From Bacilli bacterium (GTDB lineage: Bacteria; Bacillota_I; Bacilli_A; RF39; UBA660): 64,000 bases of DNA. Every line of letters starts with the position of its first letter. Position 1 is the stretch's first letter. Below, in pieces: positions 5,590 through 46,377 of this stretch. The DNA lies in contig JAFSVF010000009.1 in the NCBI GenBank assembly GCA_017450205.1, positions 107,491 through 171,490 on the forward strand, read 5' to 3'. Below the pieces are notes generated by a model, which was given only the letters and a program-made list of their open reading frames with translations, made no database searches and had not been told where the DNA came from. The position numbers and the translations under genes are program-made.

Positions 5590-6534
5590 ATGAAAATAAG
5601 AGATTATATTGATGCTGGAAAATCAAAAGATGAAATTTTTAATTTTATTATATATGTGTTCCCAATTTATATACTTAAACTTCTTTTTGAAGATTTTATT
5701 TTCTTATCTAATTTTTTAGATTATGCAATAAAACATGTTTGGCCTGCGTTATTATTGTTAATTGGAGTTGTTATATTATATTTTATATTAACTAATTTAT
5801 TGTTTTTATTATTTGGATTTATTTTATATTTATTTTCTAAAAGTGAGAATTTTGAAAAGATAGTTAAAAGGGCTTTAATTTTTCTTTTACTTTTGCCTTT
5901 TATAGGTTTTTTCTTTGTAAAATTATTTGAATTATTTGGTTTTATATCATTTAAAGCACAAGGTAATGTGTTAACTACTGCTTATGTATTTGTTGGTATT
6001 GGTGTTGTAGTTACTTTAATAGTTATTTTTAGAAGTTATATTGTTAAATTTTTTAAATATATAGGTTCTGCTATTTCTGATTTCTATAAATCAGAAAAAT
6101 ATTTAAAAGTTATTCCTATTGCTTGTGCATTATTAAGTGGAAGCTATTTTTATAGATTGATAACAATAGAAGCTGAGAGAATGAAGTTCGATTTAAACTA
6201 TAATGATAATTTAACTACTTATGTGCTTTGTTTGGTTATAGTTCCTTTTTTAGTATATTTTTTATCAGGAACTATTTTTTATAAAATATATGATAAATTT
6301 AAATCTGATAAATTAAAAATTATAATTAAAGTAATTAATATTATTATTTATATAATTGCATTTTTCTTTGTTGGTTCTTTTATTATCAAGGTTTTTAGTC
6401 CTAGTGCACTTGTATCAAATGGACTTTTATTATTTTTTGGTATTTTATTAGGACTTGAGATTACATTATTCTTTTTTATTTATAAAAGTGTTCTAGAAAT
6501 AATTAGACTTGTTAGAGGTGATTCTTATGAGTAA
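5590..6534 (+). CDS. Polytopic membrane protein of unknown function
   Basis: About 8 hydrophobic segments; RBS AAGGTG. Confidence 0.65.
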   Translation: MKIRDYIDAGKSKDEIFNFIIYVFPIYILKLLFEDFIFLSNFLDYAIKHVWPALLLLIGVVILYFILTNLLFLLFGFILYLFSKSENFEKIVKRALIFLLLLPFIGFFFVKLFELFGFISFKAQGNVLTTAYVFVGIGVVVTLIVIFRSYIVKFFKYIGSAISDFYKSEKYLKVIPIACALLSGSYFYRLITIEAERMKFDLNYNDNLTTYVLCLVIVPFLVYFLSGTIFYKIYDKFKSDKLKIIIKVINIIIYIIAFFFVGSFIIKVFSPSALVSNGLLLFFGILLGLEITLFFFIYKSVLEIIRLVRGDSYE

Positions 6535-7540
6535 GAATAGAATAGGTATTATATATTTTTATGTTCATTATGTAGTTGAAGTATTATCATTCTTCTTTTT
6601 ATATTCTAATTATAAAAGTAGTTATGTATGGTTAATACCACTAGTATATGATTCATTTGCTTTTGTACCTCAAAGTTTAATTGGATATGTATCAGATAAA
6701 TATAAAAAGATTAATATGGGATTAATTGGAATTGCTTTATTCTTTATAGGTTACTTATTCTTTTTATATACAAAAGTTAATATATTTGTTCCACTTTTAA
6801 TTATTTGTTTAGGTAATGCATTCTTACATGTAGATGGAGCAGAGAACACTATTAGGTTTGGTAATGGTAAGCTTTCTAACGTTGCAATATTTGTTGCAGG
6901 TGGATCTTTTGGAGTTTTATCAGGAAGATTACTTGTAAATAATCTTAATACGCCTGAAGTTTTATTTTTACCCTTAATTTCTTTAATACCACTAGTTATT
7001 ATGTGTAATGATGAAACTAGAGACTTAAAAGGATATAAAAAGTATGATTATGTTAAAGAATCTGTTAATGGATTGGTTGCAATATTAATTGCATTCTTAA
7101 TTGTTATTATTAGAGGATATATGGGATATGGAATTCCTACATCTTGGAATAAAACAACATTTGAGATGATACTTTTATTTTCATCAATGGGAATAGGTAA
7201 AGCATTAGGTGGAATATTAAGTGATAAGTATGGTATTAAAAGAATAGCGCTTATTAGTACTTTGGGTTCAATTCCATTCCTTTGCTTCGGAGATAAAATA
7301 ATGCTTATTTCATTACTTGGTATATGTAGTTTTTCAATGACTATGTCTATTACTTTAGGAATTATACTTTCTGTTTTAAAGAATAAACCTGGTTTATCTT
7401 TTGGTATAACAACAATTGGATTATTCTTAGGTACACTACCAATATTCTTTATTAAATTATCATTTATATATAATGTAATTATGATTATAGTATTTTCTAG
7501 TATATGTGCATATTTACTTACTAGAATATTAAAGGAGTAA
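6527..7540 (+). CDS. MFS-like membrane transporter
   Basis: GYVSDK and GGILSDKYG MFS loop motifs, many TMs; likely start MSKN overlaps the previous stop. Confidence 0.7.
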   Translation: MSKNRIGIIYFYVHYVVEVLSFFFLYSNYKSSYVWLIPLVYDSFAFVPQSLIGYVSDKYKKINMGLIGIALFFIGYLFFLYTKVNIFVPLLIICLGNAFLHVDGAENTIRFGNGKLSNVAIFVAGGSFGVLSGRLLVNNLNTPEVLFLPLISLIPLVIMCNDETRDLKGYKKYDYVKESVNGLVAILIAFLIVIIRGYMGYGIPTSWNKTTFEMILLFSSMGIGKALGGILSDKYGIKRIALISTLGSIPFLCFGDKIMLISLLGICSFSMTMSITLGIILSVLKNKPGLSFGITTIGLFLGTLPIFFIKLSFIYNVIMIIVFSSICAYLLTRILKE

Positions 7541-7544
7541 TATT

Positions 7545-7679
7545 ATGAGTTTTATATTTAATTCTATTTTTATTAAAAATTATGAAATATTATTTATAAT
7601 TCTTTCAATAATTACTATAATTATAATTGGTATAACAATATATTTAGTTATTAAAGAGGTTAATAATGGGAATAGATAA
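7545..7679 (+). CDS. Small single-TM protein (44 aa), absent from the ORF track
   Basis: RBS AAGGAG then MSFIFNSIFIKNYEILFIILSIITIIIIGITIYLVIKEVNNGNR; fills the operon gap and overlaps the next start. Confidence 0.6.
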   Translation: MSFIFNSIFIKNYEILFIILSIITIIIIGITIYLVIKEVNNGNR

Positions 7680-8022
7680 TATACCAATCACTATGGTAGT
7701 TTGTTTAAGTCTTACGATTATTTTAGAAACTTTATTGGCTTTTCTAATTGGAGTAAGAAAGAAAGATTTGATATTTGTGGTTTTAGCACAAGTAGTTACA
7801 AATCCAATTGTAGTAACAGTACCGTATTTAATATTTATATTATTTGGTTATAAAAACTATTTAATATCTATTTATGTTTTAGAAGTATTAGCATTTTTAG
7901 TTGAAGGACTAATTTATTCTAAAAGTTTAAGAAATAAGAAAATAAATCCATTTCTTTTATCTTTAATATTAAATGTATGTTCATATGGATTTGGATTATT
8001 AATGAATGGAGTTTGGCAATGA
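7666..8022 (+). CDS. Small 4-TM membrane protein
   Basis: Hydrophobic with an intramembrane Glu and VTNP motif; RBS GAGGT. Confidence 0.7.
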   Translation: MGIDNIPITMVVCLSLTIILETLLAFLIGVRKKDLIFVVLAQVVTNPIVVTVPYLIFILFGYKNYLISIYVLEVLAFLVEGLIYSKSLRNKKINPFLLSLILNVCSYGFGLLMNGVWQ

Positions 8023-8207
8023 AAAAATTAAAGTTTCTTTTATTAAGTTTATTATTAGTACCTATTACTAGTAAAGCTGATGTAATAAGTGATATTAGTG
8101 AAACTAGTAATAATAGTCAAATATTTATTTTTATTGGTATATTATTTACAGCAATACTAGTTACTGTTGTAATTACTATATTAAGATCAAGAAAGGATAA
8201 GAAATAA
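8019..8207 (+). CDS. Small protein: signal peptide, short linker and C-terminal TM anchor (62 aa)
   Basis: ATGA overlap with the upstream stop; MKKLKFLLLSLLLVPITSKA-D signal, then TM and basic tail. Confidence 0.6.
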   Translation: MKKLKFLLLSLLLVPITSKADVISDISETSNNSQIFIFIGILFTAILVTVVITILRSRKDKK

Positions 8208-9481
8208 TGAAAAAAATATTTAAGATTTTATTAATATGTATGTTTTTAATTCCATTTGCAGTTAGTGCTGATATGGGTGCTCCTTATATTAAACCAATTG
8301 AAGCTGTAATTACTAAGAAGGGTGGAATTACTGCTAAAGACTATTCTGGTAAAACAAAACATTTTGCTGAAAATGAAGTTGTTTTAGTAACTGGTGTAGG
8401 TAATGAGATAAATATCATTACAAAGAGTAATGATTATTATGATGTTAGTAGTAGTGATATTAAATATATTATCCCTAAAACTAGTGAAGTTAAACCTGGA
8501 GATGATGGAGTAAATAAACTTCAAAAACAAAGAGAGTTTGAAGTAGTTATTGATGAAATTAAAGTTTATAAAGGACCTTCAATCGTATTTCCTGAAGTTG
8601 GTACTTTTAAAAAAGGAACTCAATTAACTGCTTTTTATGAAATGGAAACACCTGAAGCTTTTAGTGAGTGGTTTTATATTCAAGAAGAATCTTTAAGTGG
8701 CTGGATTCAAATCCAAGGTGATGGTGATAATAGTTATCCAGTTTATGAAGTAAATGCTAAACCATTAAAAGTATTATTTACTAGTAATGTTACACTTAAT
8801 GGTGTTGAAATTAAAGAAAATAGTATTTATAAAATCTATTATTGGAGTAATCCTTATTTAACAATTGGACCAGTTATAAAAATAAATAATGATTTTTTAG
8901 ATGTTACAAATGAAAAAGTTGAAATTATTTCTGATTCTAAAAAAGTAACTGGATTATTTCATATGACTCAATTTAATTTTAGCCTTAAAAAAGATACTAA
9001 ATTATATTCAGATTATAAATTAAGTGATGAAATTACAATAATACCAGCTGGTACTAAGTTATCAAATATTAATCTTTTACCTGATTATGTATTTGGTGAT
9101 GAAAATGAAAATTTTATTATTTATGTATCATATAATAACAAATTAGGTTGGATTAAAGTAAATGACAAAGGTGTTGAAAATATAGAAATAGATAATGATG
9201 AGTTAGTTAGTCCTTATATTGATCCTGAAGGCGATGATGGAGAAGAAGATGAAGAACAAACTACTGAACTTGCGGTTGTAGAAGAACCTAAAAAAGGAAA
9301 AAAATTAATAGATAAGAATACTATTATAATTTCTGTTGTAGTTGCTGTAAGTGCTGCTGTTATAGCATTCTCATCAATTGTTTTACTTAATAAAAAGAAC
9401 AAAAAAGATACTTTATCGGAAATTAATGAAGAATTAAGTAAAACTCAAAGTATTAAAATTAATAATAATGATGAAAAATAG
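8207..9481 (+). CDS. Secreted protein with SH3b-like segments and a C-terminal TM anchor
   Basis: Signal peptide VSA-D; VYKGPS...VGTFKKG...WFYI...GWI and YVSYNNKLGWI SH3-like patterns; C-terminal TM. Confidence 0.65.
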   Translation: MKKIFKILLICMFLIPFAVSADMGAPYIKPIEAVITKKGGITAKDYSGKTKHFAENEVVLVTGVGNEINIITKSNDYYDVSSSDIKYIIPKTSEVKPGDDGVNKLQKQREFEVVIDEIKVYKGPSIVFPEVGTFKKGTQLTAFYEMETPEAFSEWFYIQEESLSGWIQIQGDGDNSYPVYEVNAKPLKVLFTSNVTLNGVEIKENSIYKIYYWSNPYLTIGPVIKINNDFLDVTNEKVEIISDSKKVTGLFHMTQFNFSLKKDTKLYSDYKLSDEITIIPAGTKLSNINLLPDYVFGDENENFIIYVSYNNKLGWIKVNDKGVENIEIDNDELVSPYIDPEGDDGEEDEEQTTELAVVEEPKKGKKLIDKNTIIISVVVAVSAAVIAFSSIVLLNKKNKKDTLSEINEELSKTQSIKINNNDEK

Positions 9482-39794: not shown

Positions 39795-40696
39795 ATGAAT
39801 AAAGTATTGAGTATTATTAAAGACTTAAATCCTTTTAGTAATAAAAGAATAGATAATAAAATAATTTATACGTTAAAAATATTATTGTCTGCATTTGTGG
39901 TGTATTTTGCTAGTTTAATTATTGCAGAAGGGATTATTATAGGCGGTTCATATTTATTTGGATACAATGCTACTGACAAACAAATGCCTTATGATATTAT
40001 GCTATTATGTACATTTTATGGTTATTTAATTACTATATTATTATTTATATTATTTGCTAAAAAAATAAATAAAATTGAATTAAATAAAATTGGATTAGAT
40101 AAAAATTTTAAAACTTTTTTAAAGGAATATTAATTGGAATGGTATCATTATCATTAATAATAATTTCATTATTAATGATTGGTGCAATTAGATTTAATGG
40201 AATAAACAATAATATTGATTGGTTGTTTTTGGTATTATATTTATTTGGATATTTAATTCAAAGTTTTATGGAAGAGTTAATATGTAGAGGATATTTATTA
40301 CATAGATTAAAAGAAAGAATACCTCTTGTATTAGCTATTATTATAAGTATATTATTCTTTTCAATAGGACATTTTAATAAGATGTTTGTTGATGGTACAT
40401 TGATAGGCGTTATAGGAATAATAAATCTATTATTAATTAGTTTAATATTTGTTGTCATTACATTAAAAAACAAAAATATTTATGGGGCAATAGGTTTTCA
40501 TTTTATATGGAATTTTGCATTATTTAGTATTATAGGTTTAAATCTAAGCGGACTTGAAATTACCAATCCTATTTTTCAAATAGAAGTGGCTAATAAATTC
40601 TTAACTGGATATAGTTATGGAATTGAGTCAAGTTTTATAACAACTATTATACTTATAATTATATTATTATTAACAAAGATAAATGTAAGAATATAA
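39795..40696 (+). pseudogene. CPBP (CAAX/Abi) intramembrane metalloprotease split by a 1-nt frameshift near 40120
   Basis: ORFs 39795-40133 and 40139-40696 join as KTFLKGILIGMV if one A is added; EELICRGY, FSIGH and HFIWN motifs. Confidence 0.8.
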
Positions 40697-40754
40697 TGAT
40701 CGGAAGATTAAGATATTATGATTAGCTATATAGCAAGGGGACTTTAATTAATAT

Positions 40755-40909
40755 TTGATACCGATTTATAGTAACTATAAAAATGATTTAATATTAGAAG
40801 GGATTATAATTAATTTCGTCTTTTTTATGCTATAATTGAATAGAAATTGAGTAATTTCTATGAATAATAAAACTAATATCAATTGGTTGATAACAATTTA
40901 GTCAAGACT
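40755..40909 (+). repeat. Copy 1 of a ~155 bp unit: arm, terminator remnant, promoter, rbgA-like 5' end, arm
   Basis: Shares AATTTCGTCTTTTTTATGCTATAATTGAATAGAAAT and ATG-N8 codons ending TGGTTGAT with 43154-43308; encodes MNNKTNINW. Confidence 0.85.
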
Positions 40910-40929
40910 AATAAGAATTAGGTGATAAA

Positions 40930-41445
40930 ATGAGTAATTTATCTAAAGTAATTTTAGGAACTGGTAATTATTATGATGTAAAAAGTGGTAATACTGTATC
41001 TGTTACAGGTGATGGTGGTAATGCATGGGGATATTTTGGACCAGCATATAAAAGACTAGCCCCTAAACTAGTTACTTATACACCTTATGCTGAAAAATTA
41101 GAAGTATTAGAAGAATTAAAAAAAGATGTCTCTAAATTAAAAGAATATATAGAATTTAGAAAAGAAATAGAAGATGAATATATAAAAAGTTATTATGACA
41201 TAAGACTAAAAGATTTAGATGTTAAAGAGTTACTTTATATATTAAATGAGAAATTTGGTGATTGTATAATATTTTTATGCCATGAACCAATTGATGAATT
41301 TTGCCACAGAAGATTAATTGCAGATTATATAGAACTTGAAACAGGAATATATATTCCAAAAGTAAGTGTAGATGAACAAGGTAATGTTAAAAAACTTGTT
41401 CCAATAAGATATAAAAATAGATTAAAAGAAGTAATGAATAAGTAG
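40930..41445 (+). CDS. DUF488-like protein
   Basis: LAP...; IIFLCHE...FCHRRLIADYIE motif. Confidence 0.65.
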   Translation: MSNLSKVILGTGNYYDVKSGNTVSVTGDGGNAWGYFGPAYKRLAPKLVTYTPYAEKLEVLEELKKDVSKLKEYIEFRKEIEDEYIKSYYDIRLKDLDVKELLYILNEKFGDCIIFLCHEPIDEFCHRRLIADYIELETGIYIPKVSVDEQGNVKKLVPIRYKNRLKEVMNK

Positions 41446-41510
41446 ATGATTTACATTAATAACGAAAATAAAACAAATATAAATTTGTTGATAACAATTT
41501 AATCAAGACT
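41446..41510 (+). repeat. att-like junction: degenerate rbgA-like N-terminus followed by an arm
   Basis: Reads MIYINNENKTNINL then TTGATAACAATTTAATCAAGACT (22/23 identical to 40887-40909). Confidence 0.8.
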
Positions 41511-41532
41511 GATGCAAAAAGAGGTGATAAAA

Positions 41533-42198
41533 ATGACTTTGGAGGATTTAAAAATAGAATATGATAAACTTCAGTTAAAGTATGGAGCTAAAGAATTAGA
41601 TTCTATTTATAATGGTGGATGTATTGATAATCCAGATATATGTTTTGTATTTATGAATCCAACTGGCAAGAATATTGCTTCATCTAAATCATGGAAAGGT
41701 TTAAAATCACCTTGGATAGGTACTAAAAATATTTGGGATTTATTCTATGAATTAAAATTATTAGATAAAGATATATATGATAAAATAAAAACTATTAAAG
41801 GACTTGATTGGACGGAAGAATTTGCAAATGAAGTTTATAATAATGTAAAAAAACATAAATACTTTATAACTAATTTAGGGAAATGCACTCAAATTGATGC
41901 AAGACCTCTTCCTGATAGTGTATATAAAGAATATCTACATCTACTAGAAAAAGAAATAGAAATAATAAATCCTAAAGTAATTGTATTATTTGGTAATCAA
42001 GTTTCTTCTATTGTATTAAATCAAAAAGTGTCTGTTTCACAATGTAGAAAACAAAAATTTGAAAAAAATATTAATGGTAAAAAATATAAGTTTTATTCAG
42101 TTTTTTATCCAGTAGGTAATGGTAGATTTAATATAGGAAAATCTATTGAAGATATTAATTATATTATTGATAATATTAATGATAAAATTGTAGTATAA
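41533..42198 (+). CDS. Uracil-DNA glycosylase superfamily protein
   Basis: FVFMNPT, FITNLGKC, EIEIINPKVIVLFG, FYP; start MTLED after RBS GAGGTG. Confidence 0.75.
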   Translation: MTLEDLKIEYDKLQLKYGAKELDSIYNGGCIDNPDICFVFMNPTGKNIASSKSWKGLKSPWIGTKNIWDLFYELKLLDKDIYDKIKTIKGLDWTEEFANEVYNNVKKHKYFITNLGKCTQIDARPLPDSVYKEYLHLLEKEIEIINPKVIVLFGNQVSSIVLNQKVSVSQCRKQKFEKNINGKKYKFYSVFYPVGNGRFNIGKSIEDINYIIDNINDKIVV

Positions 42199-42383
42199 AA
42201 AAGAAGATGACTCATTATTCAAGAATAAAAGAAAAACTAGGTATAATAAGGGATTGAGAAATTTAATAACTTGTATGTTTAATACAAAATATGAGTAGAA
42301 GTTTAAAGGTGATTACTTCACATAATAATAAGAAATTTAAAGTATAATTAAAGTAAAATATCTCATAGTAATGGAGGTGTAAA

Positions 42384-42833
42384 ATGAGTATAATTTCATC
42401 AGCTAGTTCATCTTCTTCTTGGAGAGGATTAGATTATTATAAGAAAAATAAAATTAAAAATCTTAAGAAGCTAAATGATTTTGAATATACTAGTGAAGTT
42501 ATTGGTAGTGAAACTTATAGTGTTTATTTAGATGTATCTCATCCTAGAAGGTCTACTTGTAATTGTCCTCATGCTAATGGAAAAAGAATAATTTGCAAGC
42601 ATATTGTTGCAACATTCTTTGAAGTGTTTCCTCAAGAAGCAATAAACTTTGAAAAGGAACAAGAAAGATTACAAGAAGAATATGAAGATTATCAAGCAAA
42701 ATTATACAATAAAACACAAAGTTATATTAAATCATTGACTAAAAAAGAATTAATTGATGAATTATCATACATTTTAGATTATGCGCCAGATTGGGTGTAC
42801 AATGATTTTGTAAGAAGAAATGATATTGAATAA
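42384..42833 (+). CDS. SWIM zinc-finger protein
   Basis: RGLDYY, V.GSETY.V, CNCPH......CKHIVA. Confidence 0.85.
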   Translation: MSIISSASSSSSWRGLDYYKKNKIKNLKKLNDFEYTSEVIGSETYSVYLDVSHPRRSTCNCPHANGKRIICKHIVATFFEVFPQEAINFEKEQERLQEEYEDYQAKLYNKTQSYIKSLTKKELIDELSYILDYAPDWVYNDFVRRNDIE

Positions 42834-42850
42834 TAAAAATGGAGGCAATT

Positions 42851-43131
42851 ATGAATAATAAAACGAGGTATTAATATATGAAGATAATGATGGTTTAATA
42901 AGAGTTGATGTAAAGTTTATTGATGAAGATGTTTGGTTAAATCAAAGTCAGTTAGCTGAAATATACAAGACATCTCATGAAAATATTACTATGCATATTT
43001 CAAATATATACAAAGATAAAGAATTACCAGATTCAACTTGTAAGAAATTCTTACAAGGTCAAAAAGAAGGTAATAGGGAAGTTAAAAGAAATATTGATCA
43101 TTATAATTTAGATATGATAATTGCCATATGA
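42851..43131 (+). pseudogene. Truncated, frameshifted RhuM-family DNA-binding protein
   Basis: RBS GGAGG; reads LIYEDNDG..RVDV.F.DEDVWLNQSQLAE...HISNIY...EGNREV.R....YNLDMIIAI. Confidence 0.8.
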
Positions 43132-43153
43132 CCAAGTAAAAAATTATATTTTT

Positions 43154-43308
43154 TTGATTACACCATATTCAAGAACATAAAAATGACTTAAAAATGGACG
43201 AAACTATACTAAATTTCGTCTTTTTTATGCTATAATTGAATAGAAATGGAGTGAATCCTATGGATAATAAAACTAATGTAAACTGGTTGATTACAGTTTA
43301 TAGTAACT
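43154..43308 (+). repeat. Copy 2 of the ~155 bp unit; putative attL containing a displaced rbgA promoter, RBS and first nine codons
   Basis: Terminator GACGAAA..TTTCGTC-T6, TGCTATAAT, GGAG, ATG at 43260 MDNKTNVNW, then arm TTGATTACAGTTTATAGTAACT. Confidence 0.85.
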
Positions 43309-43517
43309 TTTGGAGAAACCCTTTATTTATAAGACATTGCGAGGATTTAAACCTTGCATGTTTATAGTAAAAAATATAAAAAATGATAAATAATAGTCAA
43401 AAATGCCTAAAATATATTAAAAATGGTATAAGAATTAAGGTATTGATTACTGGACAGTAACTACCTTAATTTGACACATCTTATAATGTGTTTTTTTATG
43501 TTCAAATGGAGGTATTT

Positions 43518-43647
43518 ATGAAAGAAGAAATAATTAAAATTAATGTATCTGAAATAGCAGATTTTTCAAAATACCCATTTAAAATTAATAATGATTTAAA
43601 CTAAGAAGAATTAAAAGAGAGTATTAAAGAAAATGGTGTTTTAGTAA
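43518..43647 (+). pseudogene. ParB/RepB/Spo0J N-terminal remnant
   Basis: RBS GGAGG; MKEEIIKINVSEIADFSKYPFKINNDLN*EELKESIKENGVLV. Confidence 0.75.
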
Positions 43648-43870
43648 CTAGCTCTTTTTTTCTTCAATTTCTTTTCCATAGAAAAGCATGATGTAATTAT
43701 AGAAATCTATAATTGCATCACTGTTAATTAAATCATTATATAGATTTTTGTTGTAATCAAAATGTTCTTTTAATATACTGAATAGTTTTCCATTTTCTTC
43801 AAAAATTTTGGAAAAAAGTTTTCTACATAGGTGAACCATATTTTTTGATATAATACAAATCATCTTTCAT
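43648..43870 (-). pseudogene. Frameshifted, truncated hypothetical gene
   Basis: RBS AGAGGGG and ATG at 43870 (MKDDLYYIKK) shift into the 71 aa ORF HLCRKLF...; abuts the ParB remnant. Confidence 0.45.
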
Positions 43871-44020
43871 GGTAACCCCTCTTTTATGTCGTTATTGTTA
43901 TACCATTTTATAAGAAATGCAATTGATTGAATAATACTTTTTATGATACGTAAATACCGGTAATTATGATTGTATCATTTAAGATTGTGTGATATTATCT
44001 ATATGGTAGGAGTGATTTAA

Positions 44021-45013
44021 ATGATATGCAAAAAGTGTGGTACAGCTAATAGTGAAAATGCAGAATTTTGTATTACTTGTGGAAGTAATTTAAAAGAAGA
44101 GATAACTACCATTTTTAATAATAATCAAAATAATCAAGTACCTAATAATGGTACCTCAGCTAACTTATATGACCAAAGTGTAATAGAACCTCAACCAACT
44201 GTTGTTTCTTCGCAATCGGTAGTTAGTAGCCAACATATGGGAAATATGGTAAATACTCAATCTCAACCAAGAAAAAAAAGAAATAGTTTAAATATTATAA
44301 TAATTTTATTAATTATGTTTATCATAGTTATTGCTGGTGGAGCATATTATCTTTTAAATAATAAAGGAAGTATTCCATCTATCAATAAAAGTGATTTAAA
44401 TACTGATGGTGATGTTAAAGAAAATAATAATAATAATGATGATAATTATTATTATTTAATTTTCTCTGACTATAAATTTAGATTTCCGGTTTCATGGTTT
44501 GATAAAAATAAATTATATGGAATAAGTAGTGAACCTGGTTCTATTAGTAATAGGTCAATTATAGGTGTTGCTGATAATGGCAATGAATCATTTTCATTTG
44601 ATTATTACTCTGAGTCTAATTCAACTGGTAAGTATGGACCAGAGTATCAAATTCATAAGTTATGGTCTGCTGGATTATCTAGTAGTTTTTATCCGGCTGA
44701 AGCTCCAGCAAATGATGATCAAATACGTGAAAAAGGTCCATACGTACAGCAAGGAGATACTTATGTAAGAAAAAGTGGTTGTGAGCAATTAAATGGTTAT
44801 AGATTGTTTTGGTATTTAGTTGCTAGTTATGATCAAAATGCAGATGGCACTTATACGACGTCTAATTATTTAACTGCATTTGTTCAAAAAGATGGCGTTA
44901 ATTCTTATTTATGTGCTAGTATAAATAAATTTGTTAAAAAGACTAGTAGTAATGACTCATATGCTTTTACAATGGATGATATATATAAATATTCTGGTGA
45001 AATGGTTGAATAA
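44021..45013 (+). CDS. Zinc-ribbon, single-TM membrane protein
   Basis: CKKCG......FCITCG, N/Q-rich linker, TM, extracellular domain; own promoter and terminator. Confidence 0.8.
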   Translation: MICKKCGTANSENAEFCITCGSNLKEEITTIFNNNQNNQVPNNGTSANLYDQSVIEPQPTVVSSQSVVSSQHMGNMVNTQSQPRKKRNSLNIIIILLIMFIIVIAGGAYYLLNNKGSIPSINKSDLNTDGDVKENNNNNDDNYYYLIFSDYKFRFPVSWFDKNKLYGISSEPGSISNRSIIGVADNGNESFSFDYYSESNSTGKYGPEYQIHKLWSAGLSSSFYPAEAPANDDQIREKGPYVQQGDTYVRKSGCEQLNGYRLFWYLVASYDQNADGTYTTSNYLTAFVQKDGVNSYLCASINKFVKKTSSNDSYAFTMDDIYKYSGEMVE

Positions 45014-45015
45014 TG

Positions 45016-45045
45016 AAAAGTATTGTTACAATACTTTTCTTTTTT
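45016..45045 (+). terminator. Intrinsic terminator
   Basis: GAAAAGTATTG / CAATACTTTTC hairpin plus T tract. Confidence 0.75.
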
Positions 45046-45104
45046 ATATGTAAGGAAGAGTGTTAAAATATTTATAAATTAACTAAAGGTTATGTGTTTA
45101 GACT

Positions 45105-45458
45105 ATATCTTAATGAAAAACAAAAAAACTAATTGAAGAATTAAAAAATTATTATAAAAAATGATTTATTATCAAAAGCAGATTTTGAAGATTTTCATAA
45201 ACAATATATGTATGAATTAAACTCTTTGAGATTATCAAAAAGAAGAATTATAAAACGAAAAAGATAATAAATTTATTTGGATTGGCTTAAAGAAATTAAA
45301 AAAATAAATAAGATTAATACTATAACTAGAAATGTTGTAGATGAGTTTATTTAAAATATATATGTATGTGAAGATAAAAAATAAAAATAGAATTTAAATA
45401 TAAAGATCAATATGAAGAAGCTATTAGGTATCTAAAATCTCAGAAAAGTATGATATAA
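45105..45458 (+). pseudogene. C-terminal remnant of a large serine recombinase with several frameshifts and stops
   Basis: Pieces read LLSKADFEDFHKQY..ELNSL, WLKEIKKINKINTITRNVVDEFI*NIYVCEDK and IEFKYKDQYEEAIRYL, matching the typical recombinase tail. Confidence 0.65.
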
Positions 45459-45459
45459 T
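45451..45459 (+). promoter_or_regulatory. Extended -10 promoter for rbgA, inside the last codons of the recombinase remnant
   Basis: TGATATAAT, 36 bp upstream of the rbgA ATG. Confidence 0.6.
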
Positions 45460-45495
45460 GTAATAGTGAGTTGTCATTAAAAAGGAAGTGATCTT

Positions 45496-46377
45496 ATGAC
45501 AAATAATAATGAAAATAACGAGTTACGAAAAAACGTAATCAATTGGTATCCTGGTCATATGGCTAAAACTAAAAGAGAAATAAATGATTTATTACCATTA
45601 ATTGATGTAGTGTATGAAATAGTTGACGCTAGAATACCACAATCTTCTAGAATTGAAGATATAGATAATATTGTTAAGAATAAACCTAGAATTATTATTA
45701 TGACTAAAAAAGACTTATGTGATTTAGAAGAAACTAATAAATGGATTAATAAATATAGAAATGAAGGTCATACTGTAGTTTTAGTTAATTTAAATAATAA
45801 TGATGATTTGAAATATGTTTTAAATGAAACTAAAAAAATTGGTGATGAAATTAATAAGAAACGTCTTGATAAAGGCTTAAAAGAAAAAGAATTAAAAGCT
45901 TTAGTAGTAGGAATACCTAATGTAGGTAAATCCACTTTTATAAATAGAATGGCTGGTAAAAAAGTTGCGGGTGTAGGTAATATGCCAGGTGTAACTAAAA
46001 ATCTAGTTTGGCTTAAAACAAAATCTAATATCCTTTTACTTGATACTCCTGGTATTTTATGGCCTAAATTTGATTCACAAGAAATCGCTAGAAATTTAGC
46101 TGCTATGAGTGCAATAAAGATGGAAGTATATGATAATGATGAAGTTGCTATTCATGTTCTTAATAAATTAAGTAAATATTATCCTAATTATTTAGAAGCT
46201 AGATATGGATTAACTGAATTTGATAATGATGATATTGGTGAAATGTATGATAGAATTGGTAAAAAGTTAGGATATATCATTAGAGGTGGAGAAATAGATT
46301 ACGCTCGTGTTTCTACATCAGTTATTAATGATATTAGAAATGAAAATATAAAAGGAATTACATTCGATAGAATTTAA
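45496..46377 (+). CDS. rbgA: Ribosome biogenesis GTPase RbgA (YlqF)
   Basis: INWYPGHMAK, DARIP, GIPNVGKST, DTPGILWPK. Confidence 0.97.
   Translation: MTNNNENNELRKNVINWYPGHMAKTKREINDLLPLIDVVYEIVDARIPQSSRIEDIDNIVKNKPRIIIMTKKDLCDLEETNKWINKYRNEGHTVVLVNLNNNDDLKYVLNETKKIGDEINKKRLDKGLKEKELKALVVGIPNVGKSTFINRMAGKKVAGVGNMPGVTKNLVWLKTKSNILLLDTPGILWPKFDSQEIARNLAAMSAIKMEVYDNDEVAIHVLNKLSKYYPNYLEARYGLTEFDNDDIGEMYDRIGKKLGYIIRGGEIDYARVSTSVINDIRNENIKGITFDRI

Follow-up and report, generated by a model that had tools for sequence, protein, structure and literature searches.

A likely remnant of a serine-recombinase ICE in the first codons of rbgA

Gene content upstream of rbgA

The window, by which we mean the whole 64,000-nt stretch of Bacilli DNA analysed here, carries rbgA at the end of a tandem array of small units that extends over about 40.75-45.55 kb. 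The last unit of this array, 43286-45545 (~2.3 kb, of which 2.26 kb lie between two inverted arms), is the subject of this work. The features of the locus are:

40755-40776, + strand: arm-like sequence (TTGATACCGATTTATAGTAACT), matching the left arm below at 18/22 positions (our count); approximate left limit of the array
40777-40886, + strand: copy 1 of the rbgA 5′ module, ending in TGG, 84% identical to 43177-43300; holds a degraded terminator hairpin, a TGCTATAAT promoter-like box, an RBS, an ATG and nine codons (MNNKTNINW)
40887-41487, + strand: cassette with a short leader and one ORF, 40930-41445 (weak DUF488 match), ending in a degenerate RBS and N-terminal module (...aaatttg)
41488-43286, + strand: next unit or units, ending with copy 2 of the rbgA 5′ module
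41512-42198, + strand: UDG-family gene
42384-42833, + strand: SWIM zinc-finger gene
42901-43131, + strand: RhuM fragment
43197-43220, 43228-43236, 43248-43253 and 43260, + strand: hairpin, TGCTATAAT box, RBS and ATG of copy 2, with nine codons (MDNKTNVNW)
43284-43285, no strand: TG of attL, putative exchange dinucleotide (from dyad centre and junction variants)
43287-43308, + strand: left arm (P′ half-site), with inner TTGATTAC, 8-nt spacer and outer GTAACT
43309-43517, + strand: conserved non-coding leader, common to an intact ICE and many small cassettes
43338-43358, + strand: terminator-like hairpin in the leader
43443-43462, + strand: arm2, a second, direct arm copy (TTGATTAC-N6-GTAACT) in the leader
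43518-43652, + strand: ParB-like remnant of 45 codons with an in-frame TAA at 43602; homology to the intact element ends at 43649
43648-43863, - strand: 71-aa ORF, no family match; absent from the intact relative
44021-45013, + strand: 330-aa zinc-ribbon protein with a hydrophobic segment; absent from the intact relative
45015-45039, + strand: terminator-like hairpin after the 330-aa gene
45111-45458, + strand: pseudogene, the last ~125 codons of a large serine recombinase (LSR), with several stops and frame changes (TAA 45456-45458)
45451-45495, + strand: putative element-borne rbgA expression signals, with a TGATATAAT box at 45451-45459 and the RBS GGAAGTG at 45484-45490
45496-46377, + strand: rbgA, 293 aa, GTPase domain
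45496-45546, + strand: first 17 rbgA codons, supplied by the element (MTNNNENNELRKNVINW)
45521-45542, + strand: right arm (P half-site), with outer AGTTAC, 8-nt spacer and inner GTAATCAA, inside the replacement N-terminal codons
45544-45545, no strand: TG of attR, putative exchange dinucleotide (from dyad centre and junction variants)

An earlier, sequence-only reading had treated the left flank of the unit (43100-43286) as host DNA. This flank is not simply chromosome, as the promoter, RBS and first nine codons of rbgA occur there a second time. A search of 40600-45700 against Rfam gave one match at chance level and no known RNA in the leader. Given that a promoter scan found 49 candidates versus 44.9 expected in shuffled sequence, our promoter calls are made on position and conservation only; the TGATATAAT box and its RBS, whose layout recurs behind intact recombinase genes, would together drive rbgA. 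The 330-aa zinc-ribbon protein is probably cargo.

Ends of the element and an intact relative

The left arm TTGATTACAGTTTATAGTAACT and the right arm AGTTACGAAAAAACGTAATCAA, the reverse complement of TTGATTACGTTTTTTCGTAACT, form a 22-nt inverted pair with 82% complementarity. With up to one mismatch allowed, the pattern TTGATTAC-N8-GTAACT matches the window twice, at the two arms and nowhere else (0.05 matches expected; 1 of 100 shuffles reached two), and TGGT adjoins both arms, at 43284-43287 and 45544-45547. The arm positions, their shared motif and the flanking TGGT are as the sequence-only reading had described them.

A complete counterpart of the unit is present in a relative sampled as both G326 and G188 (JAGAFD010000010.1). 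Its left junction reads ...CAATTGG|, after which come TTGATTACGATTTATAGTAACT, the leader and an intact parB of 301 aa; at its right end a 527-aa LSR is followed by TGATATAAT, an RBS and MTNNNENNELRKTVINW with the arm AGTTACGAAAAACCGTAATCAA, then by TTGG|TATCCC of rbgA. The 38.2 kb of this element encode a VirB4/TraG-type ATPase (TraG P-loop/DUF87), a coupling protein, an SSB, an M23 peptidase, a sortase, an adhesin and two tandem LSRs, of 527 and 586 aa. The window matches it at its two ends only: 43265-43649 is 80.8% identical over 390 nt to its left end and parB, and 45111-45645 is 86.4% identical over 538 nt to its recombinase tail and the rbgA start. The proposed ParB remnant, which falls under the cut-off in a profile search (ParB_N, E 0.017), is borne out by the first of these matches. 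The left arms of the two elements are identical at 20/22 positions, with both changes in the spacer, and the right arms at 21/22, again with the change in the spacer, such that the window unit has kept both arms with inner and outer motifs unchanged. Because the right arm lies within coding sequence that rbgA needs, its conservation need not mean recombinase binding. No conjugation or type IV secretion genes were found in the window unit; as the intact relative has them, we regard the unit as an ICE remnant and not an ICE.

The recombinase remnant was assigned by similarity. Read through its stops, 45103-45375 is 71% identical (62/87; E 9.8e-28) to residues 416-502 of a 529-aa protein with Resolvase, Recombinase and Zn_ribbon_recom domains, and the stretch 45105-45458, previously suggested to be a recombinase C-terminal remnant, corresponds to the last ~125 residues of an LSR. 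Full-length relatives were found by a word-index search for longer proteins. The 527-aa LSR of the intact element (L034 7001-8581), whose gene adjoins the att site, is 87% identical to P0002, and both carry PF00239, PF07508 and PF13408, that is, resolvase, recombinase and zinc-ribbon domains. The best solved relative of the recombinase is the TnpX catalytic domain (2mhc, E 3.6e-20); its match to DUF4368 is weak (19.7 bits against a curated cut-off of 25). We also considered a clade of short, ~410-aa LSRs and rejected it, since blastx of 45000-45500 against nine such proteins gave only E ~0.1; judged by its similarities, the remnant belongs to the ~527-aa type. The intact homologues that the sequence-only reading had suggested looking for exist, and the elements that carry them have these arms too and join rbgA at an identical base; both of the contrary outcomes it had named, a lack of recombinase similarity and differing boundaries, were looked for and neither was seen.

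If the element ends were joined, the arms would form the symmetric attP proposed earlier, a dyad of about 48 bp whose 23-nt halves agree around TG at 18/23 positions in the window and 19/23 in the intact relative (hand count). Junction variants are consistent with this centre: the base 3′ of TG follows the right partner (TGC with the TTGAGCATG arm in 3/3 cases), and the Y 5′ of TG follows the left partner. From the dyad centre and these variants we infer that TG is the exchange dinucleotide. TGGT is the sole sequence common to all four site types. Between the P arm and the native B arm, 13/22 positions are alike (our count) because both encode ...NW; this is above the usual likeness of LSR attP and attB. 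Agreement at this level is also the pattern expected of a tyrosine-integrase direct repeat.

In the family, 27 of the 301 sampled genomes have this attR type, with no control matches; among the 150 of 569 LSR matches listed, at least 8 of the 27 have co-oriented LSR genes no more than 2 kb upstream. Both ends are known for two types, AGTTAC/GTAACT in the intact relative and GGGGGTTGC/GCAACCCCC in G294, where a right end GGGGGTTGC-N8-GTAATCAA and a left end TTGATTAC-N8-GCAACCCCC lie on one contig 58 kb apart. Two more types match across genomes only (GGTTAG...GTCATCAA with TTGATGAC...CTAAC; GTTCTTA with TAAGAAC). The outer motifs thus co-vary between element ends, as would be expected of attP half-sites. 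Searches with the type-1 arm pattern did not find the left ends of the element types in G248, G183 and G247. In four other relatives (G001, G006, G002 and G016) the sequence to the left of 43287 runs directly into that to the right of 45546 (...AAACTGG|TATCC...), and the flank examined in each holds no cassette junction. A fifth genome, G005, was rejected as an empty site, since it has two junctions upstream.

A proposed history and its rivals

We conclude that 43286-45545 is very likely the deletion remnant of a ~38-kb ICE in the first rbgA codons. Under this reading, the ICE would have inserted by LSR recombination after the N-terminal Trp codon of RbgA that precedes YPGHM. The attP of the circular element, about 48 bp with two 23-nt arms in dyad symmetry around TG (inner motifs GTAATCAA and TTGATTAC, outer motifs AGTTAC and GTAACT), would have recombined with an attB formed by the rbgA sequence ...AAY-TG-GTAYCC.... 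Integration would have left rbgA without the promoter, the RBS and the nine initial codons that it had before, a loss that the element would make good with the promoter-like box, the RBS and the 17 replacement codons, the right arm among them, that follow its recombinase gene. Either of the two tandem LSRs is a candidate for the enzyme that acts. A later internal deletion would have removed the conjugation genes and reduced the recombinase to its last ~125 codons. The present unit would then consist of attL with the leader and 45 parB codons, a pair of cargo ORFs, and the end of the recombinase gene followed by attR and the replacement N-terminus, on which rbgA would still depend. For the middle 1.46 kb (43650-45110) the intact relative has nothing equivalent, and a single deletion is therefore not the whole history.

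Signs of a cognate recombinase, and of movement, were sought in several data sets. None was found in the unit's own genome (G000), where the best LSR besides the remnant is 27% identical to P0002, so that the unit should be unable to move by itself; as this assembly (28 contigs, 92% complete) is incomplete, a cognate enzyme could sit in the missing part. With the remnant (P0001) as query, tblastn against 40 relatives and the own genome matched only the window itself, and a search of 50,697 phage records gave no match. In contigs of four public runs, short, low-side joints are common, and none is a clean excision joint, a circle junction or a precise attB or attP joint. In one contig (X1, depth 5.3), 43284 is followed, after four other letters, by 45549; we rejected this as an excision product and read the contig as the contiguous rbgA start of a relative.

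Two readings would remove the serine recombinase from the explanation. The arms could be a chance inverted repeat in very A+T-rich DNA, in a hypervariable intergenic stretch shaped by homologous recombination; indeed, 2.8 kb here hold 494 inverted pairs, among which the arms rank only 23rd by length. However, the specific pattern occurs far more often than expected, and the same two arms bound the intact 38-kb element at the same rbgA base, which makes coincidence extremely improbable. Alternatively, a tyrosine integrase of the Tn5253/Tn5252 kind could have used the RBS and first-codon module as its direct repeat (attL/attR), with the inverted arms incidental. Excerpts of PMC6079316 describe a Tn5253 attB of 83 bp, made up of 63 nt upstream of rbgA and its first 20 nt, with Int/Xis at the right end; according to parts of PMC4701971, Streptococcus ICEs at the rbgA 5′ end encode tyrosine integrases. 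In the same vein, a right module of ~45 nt recurs at every array junction. Yet no Phage_integrase was found among 89 tested array ORFs (of 137 extracted) and no PF00589 among 35 ORFs of the intact ICE region, nor was a tyrosine recombinase seen on the array contigs of G062 and G070 or near the G005 array. The only two tyrosine recombinase matches in the genome of the intact relative, C10:136000 and one on C3, are both outside the element, the former on the element's own contig (C10) about 88 kb past its right end. Given also that LSR genes stand beside attR in at least 8 genomes and that the arms co-vary as a dyad, we consider a tyrosine integrase very unlikely.

A further reading keeps the serine recombinase and changes the role of the unit, which together with the units upstream would be part of a working cassette system. 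LSRs acting in trans would move recombinase-less units with a P′ arm; units may be carried out by an adjacent ICE through excision at an outer attL (accretion and cis-mobilization), and would be left behind when the ICE exits, making rbgA an integron-like collecting site. Several observations favour this. The junction pattern occurs in 42 of the 301 sampled family genomes (75 matches versus 7 for a reversed control), with up to 7 junctions per array. In 14 loci and the window together, 47 regex-defined junctions delimit 32 cassettes of 306-4917 bp. These are recombinase-less and mostly single-gene (~0.3-2 kb), with diverse cargo in the orientation of rbgA and a common leader, which is all that 59 cassette pairs share. 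Whole cassettes are near-identical across genera (G070 versus G197, 96.2% over 662/664 nt; G009 versus G070, 94.8% over 306 nt). The window unit itself has both arms with their motifs intact, and another study's sample contains it at ~94-96% identity, with a 3-nt change as the sole indel in the 330-aa gene. On the other hand, small cassettes keep the P′ arm only, and their right end is of the B type, as it repeats the start of rbgA (RBS and first codons). Once circular, each would bear an attL-like site, and no LSR is known to recombine a site of that kind with attB. Moreover, no Resolvase-domain gene was found in G070 (6 junctions, 93% complete) or in G005 (96% complete), the four public runs yielded no circle or excision joint in their contigs, and the first formation of a cassette is left unexplained. 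We rate a working cassette system as a serious contender that falls a little short of an even chance.

Extending this idea, the rbgA start in this family of small-genome gut and rumen Bacilli could be a serine-recombinase gene-collecting site, a counterpart of the integron built on a different enzyme. Several orthogonal LSR types would share one attB, each with its co-varying outer motif, and one-gene cassettes, each with a type-specific P′ arm, a leader of its own, another arm copy ahead of the cargo RBS and a portable rbgA start, would be taken up, rearranged and exchanged across genera, with the window unit caught in transition from ICE to cassette. We put this forward tentatively, and would sooner doubt than assert it.

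Relation to known mobile elements

Conjugative and mobilizable transposons of Firmicutes that are moved by LSRs include Tn4451 (TnpX) and Tn5397 (TndX). The elements described here resemble them in combining Resolvase, Recombinase and zinc-ribbon domains and in placing the gene at the element end beside the att site. They differ in that their target is fixed, a single site among the initial codons of an essential gene, and in carrying a promoter-like box, an RBS, replacement codons and two tandem recombinase genes. CIMEs, known from ICESt-type accretion and cis-mobilization, are att-flanked, lack recombination and transfer genes and lie in tandem with ICEs at the same site; described cases involve tyrosine integrases and few units, whereas arrays here have up to 7 junctions and serine-recombinase sites. 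With integrons the arrays share co-oriented, mostly single-gene cassettes with a conserved boundary, collected at one site and shared between taxa. In contrast to the IntI and attI/attC of integrons, the boundary here is an LSR half-site plus a gene-start copy, with no IntI and no attC-like hairpin found at cassette boundaries. The common left arm and leader tie the small rbgA cassette arrays to full-size conjugative elements, which makes the origin and movement of recombinase-less cassettes a testable question.

Tn5253/Tn5252-type ICEs, as far as the excerpts of PMC6079316 and PMC4701971 go, use the same end of the same essential, conserved gene and restore the rbgA start, with a tyrosine Int/Xis and an 83/84-bp direct repeat; by comparison, the recombinases here are of the serine type, the sites share TGGT only and attP is a dyad. 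The earlier suggestion of a new target specificity must be narrowed in this light: the rbgA 5′ end is a known ICE target of tyrosine integrases, and its use by a serine recombinase was not found in print in a full-text literature search. The locus would thus offer an att pair, predicted at the sequence level, for a serine integrase whose landing site is a near-universal bacterial gene and whose element itself repairs the gene start, an indication that the 5′ end of an essential gene can act as a landing pad without loss of function. At least two, perhaps four, arm types differ in the outer motif and have the same attB; these are naturally occurring candidates for orthogonal integrase/att pairs in genome engineering.

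SCC/SCCmec elements (rlmH, Ccr LSRs), going by the abstracts of 10.1101/336396 and PMC13739063, likewise form tandem stacks at one end of a housekeeping gene, with recombinase-less units interspersed and the gene end repeated at each junction. Here, however, the site is at the 5′ rather than the 3′ end, so that each unit must supply translation signals, and the units are mostly single genes of ~0.3-2 kb with a common leader.

Arms and junctions at the start of rbgA

The sequence-only reading had proposed a pair of att-site arms of a serine-recombinase element, each beside a TGGT:

Left arm, 43287-43308: TTGATTACAGTTTATAGTAACT (window letters)
Right arm, 45521-45542: AGTTACGAAAAAACGTAATCAA (window letters)

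The window letters, an inverted-repeat search and a pattern search agree on this placement. The arms pair over 22 nt with 82% complementarity, TGGT adjoins each of them, and their positions are the sole matches to TTGATTAC-N8-GTAACT (≤1 mismatch) in 64 kb, where 0.05 were expected; two matches occurred in 1 of 100 shuffles. With the junction marked by a slash, the left side reads ATG GAT AAT AAA ACT AAT GTA AAC TGG / TTGATTAC, and the right side reads ...AAC GTA ATC AAT TGG / TAT CCT GGT CAT ATG, running on into a 293-aa RbgA GTPase. An orphaned start (MDNKTNVNW, preceded by a TGCTATAAT box and RBS) thus stands at the left junction, and at the right one rbgA has a different, replacement start (MTNNNENNELRKNVINW, preceded by a TGATATAAT box and RBS). 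In four relatives (G001, G006, G002 and G016) the flanks are contiguous, ...AAYTGG/TAYCC..., which puts the insertion precisely at the boundary of the Trp codon with YPGHM of RbgA; the fetched flanks of these four contain no cassette junction. A further genome, G005, was rejected as an empty site, having two junctions further upstream.

An intact relative and the window unit

A recombinase C-terminal remnant had also been proposed at the unit's right end, the unit being the stretch between the arms. Read through with stops as X, 45103-45375 matched only DUF4368, and that weakly (below cut-off, E 3.9e-4). A query with the remnant matched the window itself alone among 40 relatives and the window's own genome, and nothing in phage records. 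A longer-protein search recovered two full-length large serine recombinases (LSRs; 529 aa and 527 aa) that have Resolvase, Recombinase and Zn_ribbon_recom domains, to which the remnant is 71% and 67% identical (E 9.8e-28) and whose final residues are identical to the window's third-frame piece, bearing out the proposal.

As the sequence-only reading had suggested checking, intact homologues abut rbgA with like arms. In JAGAFD010000010.1, from a rumen 'Bacilli bacterium' assembly (G326, the same as G188), a 527-aa recombinase gene ends in the TGATATAAT box, followed by an RBS, MTNNNENNELRKTVINW holding the arm AGTTACGAAAAACCGTAATCAA, and TTGG/TATCCC of rbgA; HF990769.1 (Clostridium sp. CAG:1193) shares this right-end layout. 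The left end lies 38.2 kb upstream on the same contig, where ...CAATTGG is followed by TTGATTACGATTTATAGTAACT, a window-like leader and an intact 301-aa ParB_N gene. The interval holds genes for a TraG-P-loop/DUF87 ATPase, coupling protein, SSB and M23 peptidase, for a sortase with an SpaA/thioester adhesin, for restriction (GmrSD and Eco57I-type) and for a tandem pair of recombinases (586 and 527 aa); the only two tyrosine recombinases of this genome are both outside the element. The 38.2-kb element is an integrative conjugative element (ICE). The arms and junctions are confirmed, and their reading as sites of a serine-recombinase element is supported; the att pair is real and part of a serine-recombinase element family targeting the rbgA start.

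Ahead of this ICE stands a further serine-recombinase element (locus L036 of G326, contig C10, 723-2327; junction ~2425), whose right end supplied the target; here, therefore, one element's attR served as attB for the next.

Compared with the ICE, the window matches at the ends only (43265-43649 at 80.8%, 45111-45645 at 86.4%), and the 1.46 kb between the matched ends, without counterpart in the ICE, includes:

71-aa ORF
330-aa zinc-ribbon protein, followed by a terminator-like hairpin of its own

The best other recombinase in the window's genome, which has four Resolvase-domain genes, is 27% identical to a full-length LSR used for comparison (P0002). The unit is therefore a deletion remnant of 2.26 kb still holding attL, attR and the rbgA start. 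The whole stretch is present in four public read runs of one study, and one contig spans 43297-45570 with zero differences; these data may come from the source sample and are not independent. In a run from another study the unit is at about 94-96% identity, with indels of 1, 1, 1, 8 and 1 nt in the recombinase tail and a sole indel of 3 nt in the zinc-ribbon ORF, a pattern consistent with decay of the pseudogene and maintenance of the gene next to it.

The same reading had raised a new integrase target. The rbgA 5′ end is already known for tyrosine-integrase ICEs: Tn5253, with its tyrosine Int/Xis, has an 83-bp attB there (63 nt upstream and 20 nt of CDS; PMC6079316), and other streptococcal ICEs behave likewise (PMC4701971, PMC7168690). 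In the full-text articles searched, none was found to assign a serine recombinase to rbgA.

Cassette arrays upstream of rbgA

More unusual than the att pair is the cassette array that ends in the window unit as its last member. Window 43177-43300 is copied at 40777-40900 with 84% identity, and further junctions lie at 40886/40887 and 41487/41488, so 40755-45546 is a tandem array, in this order:

DUF488-like cassette
Stretch holding UDG and SWIM genes plus a RhuM fragment
Second native-like terminator-promoter-RBS module
ICE remnant

The window's UDG cassette (41512-42198) recurs in three other genera. Four genomes of the genus (window 40703-40725, L002 ~830-850, L009 ~1395-1415, L005 ~1436-1455) have a short motif, AAGATTAAGATATTAYGA, ahead of the rbgA upstream region, which makes it a marker of the array's native left flank.

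Of 301 sampled genomes of the family, 42 show the junction pattern (75 matches versus 7 for the reversed control; at most 7 per genome). Applied to the window and 14 fetched loci, a regex that drops degenerate cases such as 41487 picked up 47 junctions; an arm follows 36 of them and rbgA the other 11, and together they bound 32 cassettes of 306-4917 bp. The right module of ~45 nt (RBS, ATG, MNENKTNINW) is nearly constant between genera. Whole cassettes are common to different genera (96.2% over 662/664 nt; 94.8% over 306 nt), and 59 cassette pairs have only the leader in common. Among the 89 of 137 extracted array ORFs given to Pfam, cargo included GNATs, NUDIX, MazG, dUTPase, deaminase, UDG, ASCH, NADAR, RhuM and Bro-N, with two serine recombinases inside one array and no tyrosine recombinase. 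Nucleotide-handling enzymes (UDG, dUTPase, MazG, NUDIX, dCMP deaminase, ASCH, NADAR, HD, queuosine salvage) are abundant in L014, L015, L016, L018, L023 and window 41512-42198, alongside GNAT acetyltransferases.

Functional analogues are SCC composite islands, CIMEs and integrons. An active system mobilising such cassettes in trans is a rival reading of the arrays; however, the small cassettes hold P′-type arms only (the left element half-site), a Resolvase-domain gene is absent from G005 and from G070 with its 6 junctions, and the public read contigs examined contained no circles.

In G104, G090, G311, G225 (broken), G111 and G098, rbgA has a member of a ~410-aa recombinase clade directly upstream. 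At L026, L028, L029, L033, L025 and L024, short serine recombinases of one clade (~406-412 aa) stand either directly upstream of rbgA or just behind a cassette junction; some are part of ~4-kb elements in which the recombinase gene comes first behind the leader. In L027 (G325:C19, ~5785-5900), a 412-aa recombinase unit adjoins, with its right end and at TGG, a divergent arm, TAAAGTACGACTTATATAAACTC, at the head of a UDG cassette; G325 rbgA is on a different contig, and this join may represent another array site or a piece of the array left unplaced. In L017 (G197:C24), the array's last junction is immediately followed by an opposite-strand gene for an IS110-family transposase (7277-8470).

Architecture of the att sites

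Counted by hand over 23 nt each side of TG, the arms agree at 18/23 positions in the window and 19/23 in G326; window and intact-element arms differ in the 8-nt spacers only, by 2 and 1. Of 301 family genomes, 27 carry the right-junction type, and the reversed control gave no match. At least 8 of the 27 (G188, G248, G242, G294, G183, G247, G104, G098) have same-strand recombinase genes ≤2 kb upstream, among the 150 of 569 recombinase matches listed. In G294, the right arm is GGGGGTTGC-N8-GTAATCAA and the left arm, on the same strand at a distance of 58 kb, is TTGATTAC-N8-GCAACCCCC; the outer motif has changed jointly in the two. Third and fourth right-arm types, GGTTAG...GTCATCAA (G183/G247) and GTTCTTA...GTAATCAA (G248), have mirror-image left arms, TTGATGAC...CTAAC and TTGATTTC...TAAGAAC, in cassettes of other genomes, a pairing across genomes and thus a weaker match than the same-contig pair of G294. 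Junction variants locate the exchange: the base following TG goes with the right partner (TGC beside the TTGAGCATG arm, 3/3 cases) and the pyrimidine preceding TG with the left. The sites are consistent with predicted serine-integrase half-sites around a TG crossover.

Each long leader repeats its own left arm, as a second direct copy with a 6-nt rather than an 8-nt spacer, shortly before the cargo RBS (window 43443-43462; L036 ~2585-2605; leaders of 27 cassettes in L003-L023). In cassettes with 43-44-nt leaders the first arm directly precedes the RBS. The outer motifs of the two copies co-vary (outer 12-mer ≥10/12 in the own leader in 7/27, versus 1/608 cross-type comparisons). The second copy might be an additional binding site for a recombinase, or else a scar that an older junction left.

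A conserved motif, ...CATATGACC.AG.AAC..., lies upstream of each native-like promoter module (window 43123-43145 versus 45541-45563; also L005, L014, L015). It is the reverse complement of the PGHM-coding B′ side of rbgA (23 nt, 78% complementary), and so resembles an inverted B′ half-site, beside arm-like sequence.
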